Source: Spirochaetaceae bacterium
GTDB taxonomy: Bacteria > Spirochaetota > Spirochaetia > B11-G9
NCBI GenBank assembly: GCA_015493635.1
Contig: WGCU01000053.1
Span: 813 to 64,812 of the forward strand
DNA length: 64,000 bases
Direction: 5' to 3'
The notes beneath the pieces are model-generated. The model made no database searches, was not told where the DNA came from, and worked only from the letters and a program-made list of their open reading frames with translations. Numbering within the stretch: position 1 is the stretch's first letter; every line of letters begins with the position of its first letter. Below, piece after piece: positions 1-9,124 of the stretch. Position numbers and translations under genes: made by a program.

Positions 1-548
1 AAAAATCTATTTCTGTTCATGTACGACTGGTTATCCATAAATCCAATCCCTGTGGGAAAAGGAGGTTGATGAAGAAAAACCATCGTATCGTGGTTTGATG
101 CCAGTTCATCTTCAAGTGCATCGAGTTCACCATCTGTCAAACTTCCTGATGCTTTTCCGGGTTCCACAGAATCCAGGAGAATTATTTTCTTGCCATGTTC
201 CTGAAACGAGTGGAATATTCGGCTATCCTTATAATTTTTCAGGTATGAAAGTTCACTGAAAACCTCTGCCATATTTGCTTTATTATCGTGATTTCCCGGG
301 ATAATGTAGTAGGGGATGGTAATCCCTGACAGTAAATCTTTTGCAATCTCATAGGACGAGATACTTCCGTCGTCACTTACATCGCCGGTTATACAAAGAA
401 AATCTACGTTAAACGGCAGTTTGTTTATATGCCGTATAAAATTCTTTAAACTCTGCAAAGAATCAGATACTTCATATGCGTTTATACCGTTTCTACATAT
501 ATGAAAATCTGAGGCTTGAGGTATTGTCAGAAAATTTCTTCCCATCAT
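1..548 (-). CDS. Calcineurin-like metallophosphoesterase, CpdA/Icc/GpdQ type (3' end truncated by window edge)
   Basis: Manual translation from ATG at 548 (or 545): MMGRNFLTIPQASDFHIC...CITGDVSDDG...IIPGNHDNK...LLDSVEPGKASG...VFLHQPPF, i.e. DxH, GD, GNHD and H metal-ligand motifs. RBS AGAGGGA upstream. Open to position 1; absent from ORF track because no stop lies in the window. Confidence 0.88.
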   Translation of the reverse strand, partial: MMGRNFLTIPQASDFHICRNGINAYEVSDSLQSLKNFIRHINKLPFNVDFLCITGDVSDDGSISSYEIAKDLLSGITIPYYIIPGNHDNKANMAEVFSELSYLKNYKDSRIFHSFQEHGKKIILLDSVEPGKASGSLTDGELDALEDELASNHDTMVFLHQPPFPTGIGFMDNQSYMNRNRF

Positions 549-570
549 TTTCCCTCTAAAGCTGCTGTTT

Positions 571-1668
571 TTAAGCAAGAACTTCTTTCATTATTTTTAG
601 AAAATCTTTACAGTCTTGCGGATATATTTGACCCATATTTGCAATCTGAAACATATTCTGTTCCAGAAGCGGACCCTTTCCCAAGTAGAGCACATACCCC
701 CGTTCTTCCATGGTACTGATAAAAGTATCAATATTCTTATCTTCAGGTAAAAACACAGAGGTCACTGTGTTAGACATAGTATGCTCATCAGAGAGGAGCA
801 TTTTTAAATGAAGATCCCTGACCCCTTGCCGTATAATTTCCGCGTCTTTTTTATATCGGGCTATTACCTCTTCCTGACCCTCCTCAAAAAGTACATCCAG
901 GGCTTTATTCAATGTAATAAACATGACGACTGAAGGGGTGTTAGGTGTTTGATTATGTTTCTCTGCTTCTCTTACATGATGTTGTAAATTCAAATAGACA
1001 TTTCTGGGAGGTACCGTATTTTCTATTTTTTTGTAGGCATTTTTGTTAATGCAGATAAAAGAAACACCGGGCTGCCCGGCAACTGCCTTATTCGGAACTC
1101 CGGTGCAGAAATCTATGTGGTCTCTGACAACATTAACCTCTTCGCCTCCTATGGCGCTTATTGCATCGACATGGTACATTTTGTTATATTTTACCGCTAG
1201 ATCTCCTACTTCATGAACAGGATTTACCATTCCCGTACTTGTTTCCTGAAATACCATTGAAATGAGACTGATATCCTGATCATTTTTTAAGGCTGTCTCT
1301 ATTCTTCCTAGATCAGGAGACGTTCCCCATTCAAATTCAAGCAGATTTAAACCGAGGTGGTAACATTCAATGATATCTTTCAACCGGTTACCGAATACAC
1401 CGTTTGTTATAAGGAGTACCTTTTTCCCATCTCCAACAACCGACGATAATACTGTTTCATTTGAAGATGTTCCTGAGCCGCTTACAACAACGGTGGTATA
1501 TTCTTCTTCCGTTGCACGGAAGAGGCGTATGAGTTTTTTCCGAACCTCTCCATATACATGTTCAAACGAGGGCCTTCTGTGGCATAGATCCGGTGCTAAA
1601 GCAGCTTCTTTTACTCTTTTGTCCGTTAATACCGGGCCTGGCGCAAATAAAAATTTCCTTTCGAGCAT
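571..1668 (-). CDS. PLP-dependent class V aminotransferase, PhnW/AEP-transaminase-like (substrate uncertain)
   Basis: Motifs FAPGP, GSGTSSNE, NGVFGNR, ETSTG, DAISAIGG, PNK (PLP lysine); RBS GGAGG. C-terminal FQIANMG instead of FRIGxxG. Confidence 0.85.
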   Translation of the reverse strand: MLERKFLFAPGPVLTDKRVKEAALAPDLCHRRPSFEHVYGEVRKKLIRLFRATEEEYTTVVVSGSGTSSNETVLSSVVGDGKKVLLITNGVFGNRLKDIIECYHLGLNLLEFEWGTSPDLGRIETALKNDQDISLISMVFQETSTGMVNPVHEVGDLAVKYNKMYHVDAISAIGGEEVNVVRDHIDFCTGVPNKAVAGQPGVSFICINKNAYKKIENTVPPRNVYLNLQHHVREAEKHNQTPNTPSVVMFITLNKALDVLFEEGQEEVIARYKKDAEIIRQGVRDLHLKMLLSDEHTMSNTVTSVFLPEDKNIDTFISTMEERGYVLYLGKGPLLEQNMFQIANMGQIYPQDCKDFLKIMKEVLA

Positions 1669-1916: not shown

Positions 1917-3236
1917 TCAATTACCGAAATACTTGTAAGGTAGCCATGTAACAATATCCGGAAACAGAATCAAAATTGCAATTGTTCCTGCCATTATAAA
2001 TACAAAGGGAACTATTGATCGATATATATCTCCAATTGTAATTTCTTTGGGGGCCATAGCTTTCATAAGAAAAAGATTATACCCGAAAGGAGGAGTCAGA
2101 TAAGCTATCTGACATGTGATGGTATAAAGCACACCATACCAGATTGGATTAAATCCTAAACTTATTACCAACGGGATATACAGGGGAGCAACGATGATCA
2201 GCATAGCAGTATCATCAAGAAAAGTTCCTAAAAGAAGGAAAGAAACCTGCATGGAGACAATCGTTCCAATCGGCCCAAATCCATGGCTAAGGAAGAGCGT
2301 TTTGATAGCATGCACAGCTCCAAGACCATCAAAAATTGCAGCAAAAGCCATTGCTGACATAACAACCCACATAAACATGGCACTTACACTTAACGATTGG
2401 GTCATGACCTTGTTCATAACCTTCCAGTTTAACCGCTTTTTTATCGCGGCAGCAATAATGGTAGCAACGGCACCGGTAGCAGCACTCTCAACCAGGCTTG
2501 TTACTCCCATGAAAAATAGTCCTGACATCATCAAGATAATAAAGAGAGGGAGAATCCCGCCGCGCAGTGCATGAATTTTTTCTTTAAACGGTACGTCCCA
2601 TTCTTCTCTGGACAATGCCGGTCCTAATTTTGGTTGGATCTTACACCGGACAACAATATAGATAACAAATAATGTTGCCATTAAAAGACCCGGCATAACA
2701 CCGGCCAGCCAGAGTTGTCCTACCGGCTGTCTGGCAATCATGCCATAAAGCACCAGTACAACACTCGGAGGTATCAAAATACCCAAGGAACTACCAGCCT
2801 GAATGACTCCTGTTACCATTTTTTTGTCATATTTCTTTTTTAGCATTTCAGGAAGTGCAACACTGCTCCCGACGCTCATACCGGCAACGCTCAACCCATT
2901 AATAGCAGATATTATTGCCATAAGTATAATGGTCCCGATAGCTAAACCGCCTTTAAGGGAGCCCATCAAAATATGAATTAGTTTATACAGGTCTTCCGAT
3001 ATTTTTGACTCAGAAAAAAGATAACCGATGAATACAAAAATAGGCAGCGTAACAAGAGGATACCAGTTTATAAGGGTAAAAGCGGAATGAAACCCCATAT
3101 CTATACCACCGGGTCCCCAGAGAATGACTGCAAATATGGAAGCAACCCCTCCTATAACAGCATAAATATGCCGGCCTGACAGGAGTACAACAAACATGGT
3201 AAGAAACATCAATAATGCGATAAATGAATAACTCAC
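1917..3236 (-). CDS. dctM: TRAP transporter large permease
   Basis: About 12 hydrophobic helices; GSSLGILIPPS and LTPPFG motifs. Start placed at GTG 3236 (GGAGG upstream, GTGA overlap with dctQ stop) rather than 3263. Confidence 0.92.
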   Translation of the reverse strand: MSYSFIALLMFLTMFVVLLSGRHIYAVIGGVASIFAVILWGPGGIDMGFHSAFTLINWYPLVTLPIFVFIGYLFSESKISEDLYKLIHILMGSLKGGLAIGTIILMAIISAINGLSVAGMSVGSSVALPEMLKKKYDKKMVTGVIQAGSSLGILIPPSVVLVLYGMIARQPVGQLWLAGVMPGLLMATLFVIYIVVRCKIQPKLGPALSREEWDVPFKEKIHALRGGILPLFIILMMSGLFFMGVTSLVESAATGAVATIIAAAIKKRLNWKVMNKVMTQSLSVSAMFMWVVMSAMAFAAIFDGLGAVHAIKTLFLSHGFGPIGTIVSMQVSFLLLGTFLDDTAMLIIVAPLYIPLVISLGFNPIWYGVLYTITCQIAYLTPPFGYNLFLMKAMAPKEITIGDIYRSIVPFVFIMAGTIAILILFPDIVTWLPYKYFGN

Positions 3237-3781
3237 AGGTTTTCCTCCACATTTTTGATCCACGAAGTATCTTGACCGAGTGCTATGGTAATATCCTTTA
3301 TAAGTTCAGATATAACCTGCAATAACATTAATGAAATTCCTACTGTTGCAATTAACTTCATTGGTGCTATTGGTGGACCCCAAGCCGAATAATTTTTCTG
3401 CGCATATTTTATTGCAAATGAGGTACTGCTTATTCCCCCAAGTAAGAGTCCTGTTAGATACGCAAGACTGAACACAAATGTAATAACATCAACAATAGCT
3501 TTCTTTCTTCGTGACCATTTATCATAGAAAACATCCATTCTGACATGACCGCCGATGAGAAGAACAAAAGCACCTCCCAAGAGATAATAGGTACCGTTGA
3601 TAAATTCGGTCATTTCCAAAGCCCATTTGTCTGGATGATTAAAAATCGTTCTTGAAATGGCTTCATAAGTCAAAACACCTATCATCACCAGAATCAGATA
3701 TTTTATTACCTGACCTACTATTGTGCTTATTGAGTCTACAGAACGTACGTAAATTTTTAATGGCTTAATCATAAAATCCAT
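3233..3781 (-). CDS. dctQ: TRAP transporter small permease
   Basis: 4 TM segments, GHVRMDVFY motif, lies between dctP and dctM. Confidence 0.9.
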   Translation of the reverse strand: MDFMIKPLKIYVRSVDSISTIVGQVIKYLILVMIGVLTYEAISRTIFNHPDKWALEMTEFINGTYYLLGGAFVLLIGGHVRMDVFYDKWSRRKKAIVDVITFVFSLAYLTGLLLGGISSTSFAIKYAQKNYSAWGPPIAPMKLIATVGISLMLLQVISELIKDITIALGQDTSWIKNVEENL

Positions 3782-3904: not shown

Positions 3905-4999
3905 TTATTTACCGCACGTATAGGGAGGACCCGCTTTTGCTCTAACTGCTGCGTATTTCTTGAAAGCTGCAATTACTCTAGCAGAACGGGGACTCTTTTT
4001 GGAAAGTGTATCCCAGTACTTTTCAGCCTGTTTGTCAACGCCTGTCCACTCATTTGCCGGGATTGATGTAAGTTCCATTTTGTCACCACTCGTCCGGTAT
4101 TTAGCTTCACCCCACCAGTACCAGTTCAATCTATAATAATTTGATGCCTGAATTGTCATCATCAGCAGCCTCTGTAAATGATCAGGAAGAGCTTTCCATG
4201 ATTTTGTATTTACAAAGAATCCGCCGGACCATGCACCTGAAATAGGATTAGTCAATAAATATTTACATACATCAGCTACTCCGGTAGTGTAAAGTTCTGT
4301 GGCACCTGACCAGGATACTCCATCGAGCATCCCTGTCTGAAGCGCCATCTGTACATCTTCAACCGGCATTACTACAGGTACAACACCGTATGTTTCCTCA
4401 AGAAATTTGCCATTGAAAAGGGATGTAAAAAGTCTTAATCCTTTAAGATCTTTTACATGACGGATTGGTTTATTACTGGCAATAAGACAAGGATCCCAGC
4501 TGCCCTGAGCCAGCCAGGTTACACCTGGTATCTCATCATAAGCCTCTTTCCAGATCTCATTCAAACCATAACGATTCCACAAAACGTCAATATCAAGTCC
4601 TATTCTCCCTGCAGCTGGAAAATATGCGGAGAATATTGCAACATCAGCAGGTGAACCCATGGACTCATCATCACTGACAACCATATCTAAAGTTCCTTTT
4701 TGAAGAGCGTTAAACATTTCCCCTTGAGGGACCAGCTGATCAGCTCCGTATAATTCAATTTCCATTTCTCCATTGGCGATCTTGTTAAATTCTTTAACCT
4801 TGTTGCCAAAGATTTCATCGTTCATTGATGGGCCGGCATACGTTTGCAGCCTCCACTTAATCATTTTCTTTTTTGGTGCAGCCTGCGCAGTTCCTCCTGT
4901 TTCTGCCTTTTGGCCGCAACTAATGAACACTATGGAAGCCATTACTACCAATGCAGTAAGTCCCAAAACCAAGGGTCGCTTAAAAAGATTTTTTTTCAC
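3905..4999 (-). CDS. dctP: TRAP substrate-binding lipoprotein (DctP/TakP family, non-carboxylate type)
   Basis: GTG start with AGGAGG; signal peptide with lipobox FISC; WRLQTYAG, DLKGLRLFT, LQTGMLDG motifs. Confidence 0.9.
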   Translation of the reverse strand: MKKNLFKRPLVLGLTALVVMASIVFISCGQKAETGGTAQAAPKKKMIKWRLQTYAGPSMNDEIFGNKVKEFNKIANGEMEIELYGADQLVPQGEMFNALQKGTLDMVVSDDESMGSPADVAIFSAYFPAAGRIGLDIDVLWNRYGLNEIWKEAYDEIPGVTWLAQGSWDPCLIASNKPIRHVKDLKGLRLFTSLFNGKFLEETYGVVPVVMPVEDVQMALQTGMLDGVSWSGATELYTTGVADVCKYLLTNPISGAWSGGFFVNTKSWKALPDHLQRLLMMTIQASNYYRLNWYWWGEAKYRTSGDKMELTSIPANEWTGVDKQAEKYWDTLSKKSPRSARVIAAFKKYAAVRAKAGPPYTCGK

Positions 5000-5046: not shown

Positions 5047-6540
5047 TTAAGTCCGATATTCCAAAATTCCAATCACTTTAAATAATTTTTCCCAGATACG
5101 AAAACGTTCATCAAGGAAAGGATCAAACGGCTCTTGAAAAACAATTGAATCCAAATTAAAGGCTAAAATATCATCATAGCTTTTCAGAAGCCCCATTTCC
5201 AAAGACGCAAGAAAAAAACAACCTAATGAAGTAAGATCCTCATTCTTAGATTTAATAATTTTAATACCAGTTAGTTGGGCAATGGTCTTAAGAATATAAC
5301 GGGACTTGCTGACTCTGCCGTCAACAGAAAGATTTCTTATTTCAATACCTGTTTCTTTCTCTATAAGTTTAATGTTTTGTACTATTCTAAAAGCAATTGC
5401 CTCCAGAACAGAACGAACCAAATCACTTTTGGTAGTTTGTAAACTCATGCCGAGAAATGCAGCAAAAGGCTCACTCTTCCAGTAGGGAGCTGAAACGCCG
5501 GAAAGAGCAGGAATAAAGAAGGGTTGTGTAACAGGCTTGATATTTTCAATAGTATCAATATCAGAATATTCTTCTAACAGGTCGTTTTTTTTAAGCCATT
5601 CTATTGCTGAGCCTACTGAATATATTTGACCCTCATATATATATGATTTTTGATCAAACATTTGAGGAAAAAGAGATTTTATAATTATACTGCTTTTATT
5701 TTTGGAATCTTTTCCACTGTTTACTTGTAAAAATCCACCGGTACCCAAGGTTAATTTGGCTTCACCTTTTCTGAAACATCGATGCCCAACAAGCGCTGCC
5801 TGTTGATCTACGACAGAAACCAGAATGGGAGCCTTGACCCCGAAACACATTTCAGGATCAGTTGTACCATAATTATTCATGGCCGGGGAAATAGCCGGCA
5901 TACTCTTACTATTAAGGTGAAAAAAATTAAGTATCTTATTATCCCATTGCAATGTTTCAATATCCAGCAGCATCGTCCGTGAAGCAGTTGTAAAATCAGA
6001 TTTTAATTCTTTTTTGCTGATTAATTTGTTAATTAACCATACTTCTGATGTTGCCATTACAAGATTGTTATTATCCATCTCTTTTTTTACATTACTGACG
6101 TTTTGAACTAACCATTCCATTTTGGCAGCTGAAAAATATGAACTTGCAAACAATCCTGTTCTATTCTTGACGTAATCATTTAAATCGGTATCTTCGATTA
6201 ATTGTTGAATCCGATCTTCTCCTCTTCCGTCCTGCCAGCTGATTGCATTATATAAAGGAGACAAATCATTTTTTCTGAACGGAATAATCGTTTCTCCCTG
6301 GTTATCAATAGCTACAGCACATACTGTTTCAGGATGAATTTTTGACTTTTTAATAACATCTTCAATACCTTTTCGAATGCTTCCTAATACTTCTTCAGGA
6401 TTCTGCTCTATAAAATTTTCAGAACTTTCAACAAAACGGATAATATTTGTAGATTCTGCTATTTTACTGCCGGAAGTATCATACAAAATAACCTTTGTAG
6501 AGCTTGTGCCTTGATCAATAGTAAGTATATATTTTTTCAC
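5047..6540 (-). CDS. FGGY-family carbohydrate kinase, glycerol-kinase-like but divergent
   Basis: DQGTSSTK, NQGET, WQDGR, YFSAAK, ASRTML, DQQAAL, GTGGF, APYW motifs; GTG start with GGAG. Confidence 0.85.
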   Translation of the reverse strand: MKKYILTIDQGTSSTKVILYDTSGSKIAESTNIIRFVESSENFIEQNPEEVLGSIRKGIEDVIKKSKIHPETVCAVAIDNQGETIIPFRKNDLSPLYNAISWQDGRGEDRIQQLIEDTDLNDYVKNRTGLFASSYFSAAKMEWLVQNVSNVKKEMDNNNLVMATSEVWLINKLISKKELKSDFTTASRTMLLDIETLQWDNKILNFFHLNSKSMPAISPAMNNYGTTDPEMCFGVKAPILVSVVDQQAALVGHRCFRKGEAKLTLGTGGFLQVNSGKDSKNKSSIIIKSLFPQMFDQKSYIYEGQIYSVGSAIEWLKKNDLLEEYSDIDTIENIKPVTQPFFIPALSGVSAPYWKSEPFAAFLGMSLQTTKSDLVRSVLEAIAFRIVQNIKLIEKETGIEIRNLSVDGRVSKSRYILKTIAQLTGIKIIKSKNEDLTSLGCFFLASLEMGLLKSYDDILAFNLDSIVFQEPFDPFLDERFRIWEKLFKVIGILEYRT

Positions 6541-6618
6541 AATAACTCCATAATTACTCTCTTAAGCATACTCTCATTCCTTTTCTATATATTTTTAAAA
6601 ATAAGGCAGTTAGTCCAA

Positions 6619-6687
6619 ATAACAACATGATATCAAATTATACGGTTGTTATGATATGATAATAACATGAATATATGACCATGTCAA
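6619..6687 (-). promoter_or_regulatory. sigma70-type promoter of the kinase-TRAP operon with overlapping operator
   Basis: Minus strand TTGACA (6687-6682), 17 bp, TATTAT (6664-6659); palindrome TGTTAT-N9-ATAACA at 6647-6667; ATGATATC at 6627-6634; extra half-site ATAACAAC at 6619-6626. Confidence 0.75.
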
Positions 6688-6816
6688 TTATTTTTTTTAA
6701 CTTTTTGCTACCCCTGCTGGGGTAATAAAAATCCGCCTATAAGTGGGGAGTTTAAGGTTGTTAACGGATATCTAATAGTGTGGTATCTGAGAAAAAGAAA
6801 TTTATACACGTACAGA

Positions 6817-8190
6817 TTAAATGGAGCCGCTCAGTTTCAATACCATGGATCGGAAGGTATCCCCACGGTCAAACTCGTTTAAAAACATACCGAATGAAGT
6901 TGCGCCGGGAGAAAAAATAACAGAGTCGCCCCGTCTGCTGTCGTTATAAGCTGCTGAGACAGCATCCTGAAGATGTACGAAGGGTCCCTGGAAAGAGATG
7001 TGCTCAGCCTTAAGAAGAGGTATCATTCTGTCTGTTGCTGTGCCTTTCAGAAGATAAATGGATTCCGGTATTCGTGCGGCTTCGGCAAATCCGGTAAAAT
7101 CAAGATTCTTGTCTGTCCCCCCGCAAATAAGAAGAACATGCTCCTGAATGCTTTCGACGGCAGCTGCCGCAGCCTGAGGAATCGTTGAAGCGCTGTCATT
7201 GTACCAGGTAACCCCGTTTATAACCGTTACTTTTTCCATACGGTGCGGAATACCACTAAAAGCGGAAAGTTCTTGTGCAATAAAATTGTTATCCAGCCCC
7301 TGAAAATTAAGAACGGAGGCAGCGTAGAGAAGGTTCAGTTTGTTGTGTTTCCCCTTGATATTTGTTTCTTCAGGAAGAACCTTTTTTACCTTTCCGTTTT
7401 CCTGAATAAAACCGGATTCTTCTGTCAGAAACGCACCGTCAATAGAAGGGGGCAGGGGGTCCTTTGAAACAAAAAAAGATTTTGCAGTTGATTCAGAGGC
7501 AAAAATTCTTCCTGTTGGTTCATCGAAATTGCAGATAAGATGACTAGTACTGTTCATATCCTGATATATTAGTTTTTTGTCGTCAATATATTCCTGCATA
7601 CTTGAATATCTGTTCTGGTGATCATGCATTATATTTGTTATAACTGCTGTTTTGGGATACAGCAGATGCTTATCCTTGAGATCCGCCAGCTGCCAGGAGG
7701 AAAGTTCAAGAATAACAGGATCTTCCCTCTCTACGGTACATTTATCTGCAAAAGTAAGGGGAGAGACGGTAATATTTCCTCCAAGTTTTGTTTCGGGAAA
7801 ATGTTTTTTCAATACATGGTATATGGCTGAAACGGTTGTTGATTTCCCCTTGCTTCCGGTAACAGCTATTAAAGGCCGTTTGTTCAGAGAAAGGAAAATT
7901 GATATATCTGTCTCTACCTGTTTTGCTGCTCTCAGGAAGGGGGATGAAGGGAGTACTGCCGGGTTTTTAATAACGATGTCCGCTGTTTCAAAATCTGAAA
8001 GTTTATGTTCTCCCAGAGTATAAGATATCGGGTACTTTTCAAGTTTTTGCATGGATGGGGCAAGGACTTCTTCAGATCTCAGATCTGTCACTGTGACACG
8101 GGAACCGTGTTCTGCGAAAAAAAGAGCGGAGGCGAGCCCTCCTCCGTGAAGGCCAAGTCCCATAACGGTTACTTTTATATTAAAATTCAA
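6817..8190 (-). CDS. murD: UDP-N-acetylmuramoyl-L-alanine--D-glutamate ligase
   Basis: GLGLHGG, TGSKGKSTT P-loop, ELSSWQL, HQNRY, NDSASTIP, SPGATSF...F..RG motifs; exact start uncertain (TTG). Confidence 0.92.
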   Translation of the reverse strand: MNFNIKVTVMGLGLHGGGLASALFFAEHGSRVTVTDLRSEEVLAPSMQKLEKYPISYTLGEHKLSDFETADIVIKNPAVLPSSPFLRAAKQVETDISIFLSLNKRPLIAVTGSKGKSTTVSAIYHVLKKHFPETKLGGNITVSPLTFADKCTVEREDPVILELSSWQLADLKDKHLLYPKTAVITNIMHDHQNRYSSMQEYIDDKKLIYQDMNSTSHLICNFDEPTGRIFASESTAKSFFVSKDPLPPSIDGAFLTEESGFIQENGKVKKVLPEETNIKGKHNKLNLLYAASVLNFQGLDNNFIAQELSAFSGIPHRMEKVTVINGVTWYNDSASTIPQAAAAAVESIQEHVLLICGGTDKNLDFTGFAEAARIPESIYLLKGTATDRMIPLLKAEHISFQGPFVHLQDAVSAAYNDSRRGDSVIFSPGATSFGMFLNEFDRGDTFRSMVLKLSGSI

Positions 8191-9124
8191 TAGAGTATTC
8201 CTTCATATCAAAATCATTAAGGTACGCTTGTACGGTAAAAGACCGCCATACATTTTTCCAGAATAGCGGTACTTTTGATTTTAAAGTTTTAAATTCCGGT
8301 AGATCTGAACTAAACGGAGTATGATGCAGCGATTGTTGAATTTGATCAAGTGCGGGAAGAACAAATTCTCTTGCTTTATGGAGGTAGATAAGGTGCTGTT
8401 TCCTCCCTTCAGGGCTTAGATCAATAAGGGTATTGCACAGTGTTCTGTACTTACAGGTAAAGGGATAGTAGGGGTAGAGGGTTTTTCCCTCCGGAATAAA
8501 AAGCTTGGAAAGAAATTTTGTAAGTTCGGAATCTATCCATATCCCTTCTATGTAATAACCTCTCCCTGTTTCACCAATCCATGTCTGCGATATATTCTGT
8601 TCGATAATAAATTTTTTAACCTTTCCTTTTTCTGTTACAACATCCTTCAAGGGCATGAGGTCAGATTCGAGGAAGATATTTCGTGTTTTAAAACGATTTG
8701 TAGTATCATTTGTACCCCGTATCAGTATTTTCCCATCATTTGGTCTGAAACTTAAATCGAGCCTTAGAAGATACAAATACATCTGCTCTTTTATCTTGAG
8801 TATCTGGTAAAAAGAGGGATGAAATATTTCAGCAGGATCAAAAAAATAGGTAACTCTGCTGAAAACTGACGGAAGTACCGGCAGGAGCTGCAGAAGCAGG
8901 TCTTTAAGGGCGGAAATGTAGGTTTTGCCGGGGACCGGAATGGTTACATCGTGATGAATAGGAAAGGAATAGATGGTAAAAGGCGCCGGCAGCTTGAGGA
9001 AAAACTCTTCATTTTGGTTAAAATGAGTTGTATGGACTTTTTTCATTTTATAATTGTTTTTTAAAACATCATTTATTTCTTTGCTGGCAGAATGCACAGT
9101 AATTTCATTGTGTATCTTCCTCAT
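8180..9124 (-). CDS. Hypothetical cytoplasmic protein, translationally linked to murD
   Basis: 314-aa ORF overlapping the murD start; no family recognised. Confidence 0.75.
   Translation of the reverse strand: MRKIHNEITVHSASKEINDVLKNNYKMKKVHTTHFNQNEEFFLKLPAPFTIYSFPIHHDVTIPVPGKTYISALKDLLLQLLPVLPSVFSRVTYFFDPAEIFHPSFYQILKIKEQMYLYLLRLDLSFRPNDGKILIRGTNDTTNRFKTRNIFLESDLMPLKDVVTEKGKVKKFIIEQNISQTWIGETGRGYYIEGIWIDSELTKFLSKLFIPEGKTLYPYYPFTCKYRTLCNTLIDLSPEGRKQHLIYLHKAREFVLPALDQIQQSLHHTPFSSDLPEFKTLKSKVPLFWKNVWRSFTVQAYLNDFDMKEYSIEF

Follow-up and report, generated by a model that had tools for sequence, protein, structure and literature searches.

A GlpK-like FGGY kinase encoded beside an ethanolamine-type TRAP transporter and a class V PLP enzyme in a Spirochaetaceae genome: a candidate amino-alcohol kinase

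A stretch of 64,000 nucleotides from the genome of a Spirochaetaceae bacterium (GenBank assembly GCA_015493635.1, contig WGCU01000053.1, positions 813 to 64,812; referred to here in full as the window) encodes, at positions 5047-6540 on the minus strand, an FGGY-family relative of glycerol kinase (GlpK) in which the NQRET motif reads NQGET. The gene stands at the head of a minus-strand operon with the order kinase, DctP, DctQ and DctM subunits of a transporter of the tripartite ATP-independent periplasmic (TRAP) type, class V pyridoxal 5'-phosphate (PLP) enzyme, and GpdQ-like phosphodiesterase. The best reading of this arrangement, and the one we favour, is that the kinase probably acts on an amino alcohol (ethanolamine, serinol or aminopropanediol) and feeds a PLP-dependent deamination.

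The kinase open reading frame (ORF) specifies 497 amino acids from a GTG start codon, with GGAG 8 nt upstream of the start. Both FGGY domains are recognized by Pfam above their gathering scores (FGGY_N, PF00370, 178 bits; FGGY_C, PF02782, 96 bits), and the motifs DQGT (residues 9-12), IDNQGET (78-84), YFS (135-137), ASRTM (186-190), VVDQQAAL (243-250), GTGGF (266-270) and VDGRVS (406-411) are all in place, so that every motif named in the first-pass annotation of this DNA is found in the translation. The ASKHA motifs DQGTSS (9-14, phosphate-1) and GTGGF (phosphate-2) and the catalytic D245 are invariant in the clade, and the departures from canonical GlpK are NQGET for NQRET, VDQQ for GDQQ and DGR for DGG. 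The best NCBIfam model is that for glycerol kinase, TIGR01311, with a score of 385 bits that falls 205 bits under the curated equivalog cut-off of 590 bits. Among solved structures the nearest are glycerol kinases, with identities of about 28-33%, an AlphaFold2 model of the protein (pLDDT 89.8) aligns with solved glycerol kinases at a TM score of about 0.9, and a protein atlas search with the kinase returned generic 'glycerol kinase' clusters only. Motifs, Pfam, TIGR01311, fold and tree together place the protein in a DNQGET/VDQQ clade of GlpK-like FGGY kinases, and it is likely to be an active FGGY enzyme, a GlpK descendant re-tooled for a small amino alcohol.

A canonical glpK is present elsewhere in the source genome (3.27 Mb, 97.9% complete), on contig C66, where it scores 724 bits, carries NQRET, GDQQ and DGGA, and adjoins a DeoR regulator gene. 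The 5047-6540 kinase is therefore not the organism's glycerol kinase but an extra paralogue, as the first-pass annotation had supposed, and each of the five genomes with a kinase of this clade likewise has a canonical glpK above the cut-off. No gene of the MIP family (GlpF) was found in the 97.9%-complete genome, despite its canonical glpK. A third GlpK-like paralogue lies at L002:1483-3039 on the plus strand (contig C99:14973-16490), flanked by genes for a DEAD-box helicase and an acyltransferase-like protein; it has 518 amino acids, scores 431 bits, below the cut-off, has SVQRTT in the NQRET position, a His at the Tyr135 position and the sequence GDQMSAL, and forms a very long branch in the tree.

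Five of the six glycerol-contacting residues are kept in the kinase (E83, W102, Y135, D245 and F270, corresponding to GlpK Glu84, Trp103, Tyr135, Asp245 and Phe270), and the Arg alone is gone. In GlpK this residue, Arg83 in E. coli numbering, makes hydrogen bonds to glycerol hydroxyls; in the window kinase it is replaced by Gly82. No Gly was seen at this position in the solved glycerol kinases with displayed alignments, nor in the canonical sequences aligned, where Arg is present in 118 of 118. The change is not isolated, given that the combinations R82/G244/F307 and G82/V244/Y307 co-vary strictly, with zero exceptions in ~210 aligned sequences, and an unbiased set of 146 further representatives yields 107 R+G pairs, 11 G+V/C pairs and no mixed pair. 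This co-variation of positions 82, 244 and 307 indicates that NQGET is part of a rebuilt pocket and not a lone lesion. In the window's clade Asp79 is in addition invariant (D79-N-Q-G-E-T) where Thr otherwise precedes NQ. The loss of a cationic side chain, with the gain of an acidic one and a Tyr hydroxyl beside the Trp, Tyr and Phe that are kept, is what would be expected of an ammonium site. The first-pass annotation had grouped NQGET, VDQQ and DGR together; NQGET with V244 holds family-wide, and DGR is a local feature, occurring with N413S in 8 of 62 DNQGET relatives and confined to the nearest relatives of the window protein. DGR was for this reason rejected as a family-defining trait.

The second operon gene (3905-4999, minus strand; PF03480) encodes the TRAP solute-binding protein of the DctP family, with a lipoprotein-type signal ending in FISC, and is followed by genes for the small membrane subunit DctQ (3233-3781, minus strand; PF04290) and the large membrane subunit DctM (1917-3263, minus strand; PF06808, 223 bits), the latter 85% identical to the copy in a Desulfocapsa metagenome-assembled genome (MAG). 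DctP matches PDB entries 4UAB and 4XF5 at 365 bits (E 2e-108, 319 residues), with the next-best solved TRAP protein at 59 bits. The ligand of 4XF5 is reported to be (S)-2-amino-1-propanol. According to PMC12410723 and PMC4646407, 4UAB is Csal_0678 with bound ethanolamine; PMC4646407 describes this protein as being without an equivalent of the carboxylate-binding Arg-147 that makes TRAP systems carboxylate-specific, and PMC12410723 describes an ethanolamine site composed of a platform Glu plus aromatic side chains. A Glu of the window DctP aligns, in an alignment counted by hand, with the 4UAB Glu taken as platform Glu220 on the assumption of a tag offset of 3. EtoX, the Phaeobacter homologue of Csal_0678, binds ethanolamine with a dissociation constant of 7.9 uM (PMC10132767). 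We predict that the window DctP is an ethanolamine-type TRAP binding protein.

The PLP enzyme (571-1668, minus strand) is related to PhnW and AepZ but scores under the cut-off of each equivalog compared, with 283 bits against 361 for TIGR03301, 221 against 296 for NF010006 and 216 against 401 for TIGR02326. Its best solved match is PhnW (1M32, 165 bits), and equivalents of Lys194 and Asp168 are present. Where PhnW has Arg340 the window enzyme has Gln341, as do all four orthologues and 120 of the 120 nearest relatives, and the subfamily has an invariant His-Arg near the N-terminus where PhnW has Thr-Trp. The Arg, part of the PhnW FRIGN motif, is the anchor for phosphonate and keto-acid carboxylates in this fold. 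On sequence grounds the Gln-type enzymes are a distinct subfamily, for which we propose a deaminating role, either as transaminase or as phospho-lyase. The Gln-for-Arg change fits a substrate whose putative anionic group lies elsewhere, such as a phosphate ester (longer by one atom than a phosphonate) or serinol phosphate seen as 'decarboxy-phosphoserine', and would also fit a lyase with no need of a keto acid. No PhnX above cut-off was found in the five carrier genomes, and no EutB in the carrier genomes tested. At locus L189 (G085:C13, 89-7747), another member of the Gln-type subfamily, 48% identical, has in its vicinity genes for an FGGY kinase of another kind (26% identical), an ornithine-cyclodeaminase-family protein, a type I phosphodiesterase, a histidine phosphatase and a DeoR regulator, and this cluster may specify a related pathway for another phospho-amine.

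Kinase, TRAP and PLP-enzyme genes are adjacent not only in the window but also in a Spirochaetales MAG (L011), two Spirochaetia MAG chromosomes (L021 and L022, in which a LysR gene follows the kinase), two metagenome contigs (L101 and L102) and at L118, which has a more distant DNQGET kinase; in a Desulfocapsa MAG (L020) kinase and TRAP genes are followed by the end of the contig. For 14 pairs of kinase and PLP-enzyme homologues the size of the longest contig matches, which suggests that the members of these pairs share contigs. Among 401 genomes sampled evenly from the class, the kinase clade occurs in seven (all >769 bits against the clade profile) and the PLP subfamily in exactly the same seven (>625 bits), a few kb apart. 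These seven carriers represent three families only, so that few independent events are involved. Among representatives of a 50%-identity library of 1.84 billion proteins, three score >700 bits against the clade profile and the next 544, and the predicted kinase family is small and sharply bounded. A 74-row tree places the window kinase in a 27-row clade (SH-aLRT 100) composed of three subclades, each of which includes a locus with TRAP genes, and the canonical NQRET kinases fall in another clade; Bacteroidota NQRET kinases pulled in by a second alignment pattern were set aside as irrelevant. In an eighth genome, of another family, a frameshifted kinase in two fragments and a PLP enzyme in two fragments with internal stops lie side by side (L188, G039:C38, about 5731-8054), with no TRAP genes within 10 kb; here the module appears to be in the process of loss.

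In the pathway that we propose, a transporter of the EtoX/Csal_0678 type would import ethanolamine or a three-carbon analogue (serinol or 3-amino-1,2-propanediol), the kinase would phosphorylate the hydroxyl of the amino alcohol at the expense of ATP, and the PhnW-like enzyme would then strip the amino group from the phospho-amine. The ammonium group of the substrate would occupy the place of GlpK Arg83, the pocket having been remodelled by Arg82Gly, Gly244Val, Phe307Tyr and Thr79Asp. Acting as a transaminase, the PLP enzyme would convert serinol phosphate to dihydroxyacetone phosphate (DHAP) and 3-amino-2-hydroxypropyl phosphate to glyceraldehyde-3-phosphate (GAP); acting as a phospho-lyase, it would release acetaldehyde, phosphate and ammonia from phosphoethanolamine. 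The GpdQ-like phosphodiesterase of this genome could supply the substrate from phosphodiester head groups. Both the kinase substrate and the order of the kinase and PLP steps are ones that we infer. The three-carbon substrates would call for no further enzymes, in keeping with the small set of conserved genes and with a pocket that derives from GlpK and is shaped for three carbons, and ethanolamine is favoured by the transporter homology, its abundance, the GpdQ-like gene and the absence of Eut. The 365-bit match to an ethanolamine-type TRAP protein and the strictly co-occurring PLP gene lend contextual support to the suggestion, made initially from the kinase sequence, that the altered pocket could accommodate an amino group.

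Several points weigh against this reading. From sequence we infer the placement of D79, V244 and Y307 relative to the substrate, as well as the substrate assignment for all clade members and the role of each substituted pocket residue. The loss of the PLP-enzyme Arg could equally mean that its substrate is phosphate-free, with the PLP step coming first and the kinase acting on a neutral triose. In such an order the free amino alcohol would be transaminated, serinol to dihydroxyacetone or 3-amino-1,2-propanediol to glyceraldehyde, and the kinase would then make DHAP or GAP. An enzyme acting on an amine without an anionic group would be expected to lose the phosphonate-binding Arg of PhnW, the net chemistry and the conserved gene set fit equally well, and E. 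coli GlpK accepts both dihydroxyacetone and L-glyceraldehyde. However, a transaminase would still have to bind the carboxylate of a keto acid, normally the job of the lost Arg, no sensible product would arise from ethanolamine, which the closest binding protein is verified to bind, and the loss of Arg82 and the invariant Asp79 of the kinase would be left unexplained. We consider this order of steps unlikely, while giving it some weight.

A further point of the same kind comes from flavoproteins with DAO and BFD domains, which are encoded beside 15 of the 45 NQGET-type loci examined (9 of 10 with ANQGET, five with DNQGET and one with TNQGET). Those tested best match type-2 glycerol-3-phosphate oxidase, at 225-252 bits against a cut-off of 460, and a kinase accompanied by a flavoprotein is also the layout expected of a true glycerol kinase operon. 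The window kinase could by this argument be an ordinary glycerol kinase isozyme, with G82, V244 and Y307 as an alternative grip on glycerol and the TRAP and PLP linkage reflecting joint use of the glycerol and ethanolamine of lipid head groups. The fold and five of six glycerol contacts are indeed retained, flavoproteins resembling glycerol-3-phosphate oxidase or GlpA come after many NQGET-type kinases, and the operon's GpdQ-like diesterase could free glycerol derivatives. This is set against the canonical glpK above the cut-off in every carrier genome, with the window kinase 205 bits short of it, the absence of Gly at the Arg position in the displayed solved kinases and the 118 canonical sequences, and a conserved core that consists of kinase, amine-type transporter and PLP enzyme, the diesterase being found in this genome only. 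There is, moreover, no MIP gene in the genome, and no recurrent neighbour family resembling a glycerol facilitator was seen at the NQGET loci, which were not scanned with a MIP profile. A plain glycerol kinase isozyme is accordingly a poor prospect, less likely than the order in which the PLP step comes first. The flavoproteins could oxidize glycerol-3-phosphate, which would favour a glycerol kinase, or could oxidatively deaminate a 2-amino analogue; PF01266 enzymes are known to deaminate aminoalkylphosphonates, in parallel to PhnW (PMC10590968).

The last of these opposing points concerns the nucleotide site, in which the window kinase also has G409R and N413S at adenine-site positions, which contact ADP in E. 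coli GlpK. These changes, of which G409R is the Arg of DGR, raise the question of a degenerate protein with impaired nucleotide binding, kept by chance or for regulation, or of a kinase whose substrate is another neutral polyol or a ketose, and FGGY specificities are known to shift readily. Yet DGR is conserved in eight related sequences, DGG stands in the other members of the clade, in the same type of operon, every catalytic motif is intact, and the closest characterised relative of the transporter binds an amine and not a polyol. We regard both variants as improbable, and return to an amino-alcohol kinase as the preferred reading.

The neighbours of NQGET-type kinases differ among clades. 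After an ANQGET kinase there is nearly always a flavoprotein of the DAO+BFD type together with a SoxA-like partner, to which an APC permease is added at some loci, and DNQGET kinases are accompanied by TRAP genes and a PLP enzyme, by a PotD-like ATP-binding cassette (ABC) importer and a HAD-IIB phosphatase, or by the flavoprotein pair. The transporters encoded beside these kinases are of the TRAP (ethanolamine), PotD-like ABC and APC permease types. We tentatively suggest, as a proposal that may well not hold in full, that the whole NQGET/V244/Y307 branch, about one in ten GlpK-like representatives, consists of amine-alcohol kinases. On this view the window's clade would catalyze the first step of a B12- and oxygen-independent route by which anaerobes convert head groups of the ethanolamine or serinol type to acetaldehyde or triose phosphate, deamination being performed by the class V PLP enzyme with Gln for Arg or, in sister clades, by flavoproteins that resemble glycerol-3-phosphate oxidase.

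A sister DNQGET clade (about 35% identical; L062, L063, L162, L168 and others) is repeatedly preceded by genes for a HAD-IIB phosphatase and a PotD-like ABC importer comprising a binding protein, a TOBE-type ATPase and two permeases. Two Bathyarchaeia loci (L024 and L025) were considered as an independent pairing of kinase and aminotransferase and were discounted, the aminotransferase being a bona fide IlvE (398 bits, above the cut-off of 363).

The kinase gene has a GC content of 34.4%, and 26.5% at third codon positions; among the 1835 long ORFs of the genome, which has a mean of 43% GC, each of these values ranks at the 2nd percentile. The module is absent from the 10 other genomes of the same family and is present in three of about 60 families of the class. 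The window TRAP proteins are 82-85% identical to the copies in the Desulfocapsa MAG, which belongs to the Desulfobacterota, and Desulfobacterota kinases are nested within the window's kinase clade. Low GC content, patchy distribution and this cross-phylum similarity of TRAP proteins and kinases support lateral transfer, and the AT-rich composition and lateral acquisition proposed in the first-pass annotation are in agreement with these values.

The final gene of the operon encodes a metallophosphoesterase (PF00149) that runs off the start of the window (positions 1-578, minus strand; full gene contig C53:524-1390, 288 amino acids), and the beginning of this gene shares 8 nt with the end of the PLP-enzyme gene. 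Its best solved relatives are 2DXL, 2ZO9 and 3D03 (91 bits), which we take to be the glycerophosphodiesterase GpdQ; among the loci compared, the gene is found in this genome's copy of the module only. Upstream of the kinase there is a candidate sigma-70-like promoter (6659-6687, minus strand), TTGACA-17-TATTAT with a TG extension, which matches the consensus at 11 of 12 positions and is the top site in 7 kb. Between its -10 hexamer and the start codon are two overlapping inverted repeats, ATAACAAC/GTTGTTAT and ATGATATCA/TGATATGAT (6619-6660), that form a candidate operator, and a hairpin is located 3' of murD. Given the promoter-like site, the inverted repeats and the hairpin after murD, the kinase operon looks like a separate transcription unit. 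A search of the 278-nt leader with Rfam found no riboswitch or other family. A 10-codon upstream ORF, MLKRVIMELL (6541-6573, minus strand), ends in a TGA that overlaps the kinase GTG start (GTGA), which may be chance or a coupling device. An ORF of 314 amino acids (8180-9124, minus strand) lies upstream of murD.

To our knowledge, FGGY kinases act on sugars, polyols and sugar acids only, and an amine-bearing substrate would, if true, extend the chemistry of the family. A full-text literature search in an incomplete collection found no FGGY amino-alcohol kinase, no serinol kinase or catabolic pathway, no link between phosphoethanolamine and PhnW, and no such module. Ethanolamine is a major product of membrane-lipid breakdown, and its anaerobic use is thought to proceed mainly via the B12-dependent Eut system; in carriers without EutB the module could be an alternative route. 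It is compact, with one transporter and two enzymes, and provides residue-level predictions for G82, V244, Y307 and D79 of the kinase and Q341 of the PLP enzyme. The automatic annotation of these genes as 'glycerol kinase' and '2-aminoethylphosphonate transaminase' is probably in error.

Among known systems, the kinase most closely resembles the glycerol kinases of E. coli and Enterococcus casseliflavus (e.g. 3H3N, 1GLF), with which it shares a two-domain fold (TM about 0.9), 28-33% identity, Asp245, and the DQGT and GTG loops. It differs from them in the replacement of Arg83 by Gly, Gly244 by Val, Phe307 by Tyr, Thr80 by Asp and Arg17 by Lys, in its separate clade, and in a context of amine-type transporter and PLP enzyme in place of glpF and glpD. 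The PLP enzyme shares with PhnW and AepZ the class V, fold-type I architecture and the equivalents of Lys194 and Asp168, but is below all three equivalog cut-offs, has Gln for Arg340 and His-Arg for Thr-Trp, and is accompanied by no PhnX above the cut-off in the five carrier genomes. The window DctP is a close sequence relative of the verified ethanolamine binders of the EtoXVW/Csal_0678 type; in Chromohalobacter, Agrobacterium and Phaeobacter the EtoXVW-type transporter is tied to a gamma-glutamylation pathway for ethanolamine (PMC10132767), whereas the window transporter has an FGGY kinase and a class V PLP enzyme as its partners. In its proposed logic the pathway resembles those in which ethanolamine kinase is combined with ETNPPL, or aminopropanol kinase with a phospho-lyase, such that the hydroxyl is phosphorylated and a PLP enzyme then removes amine and phosphate. 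The known amino-alcohol kinases, including that of the aminopropanol kinase and phospho-lyase route, have the choline/aminoglycoside kinase fold, and the known phospho-lyases are class III aminotransferases. ETNPPL is a precedent for a phospho-lyase acting on an amino-alcohol O-phosphate (PMC8154272), and relative to these routes the FGGY kinase and class V enzyme of the window would be non-homologous replacements.

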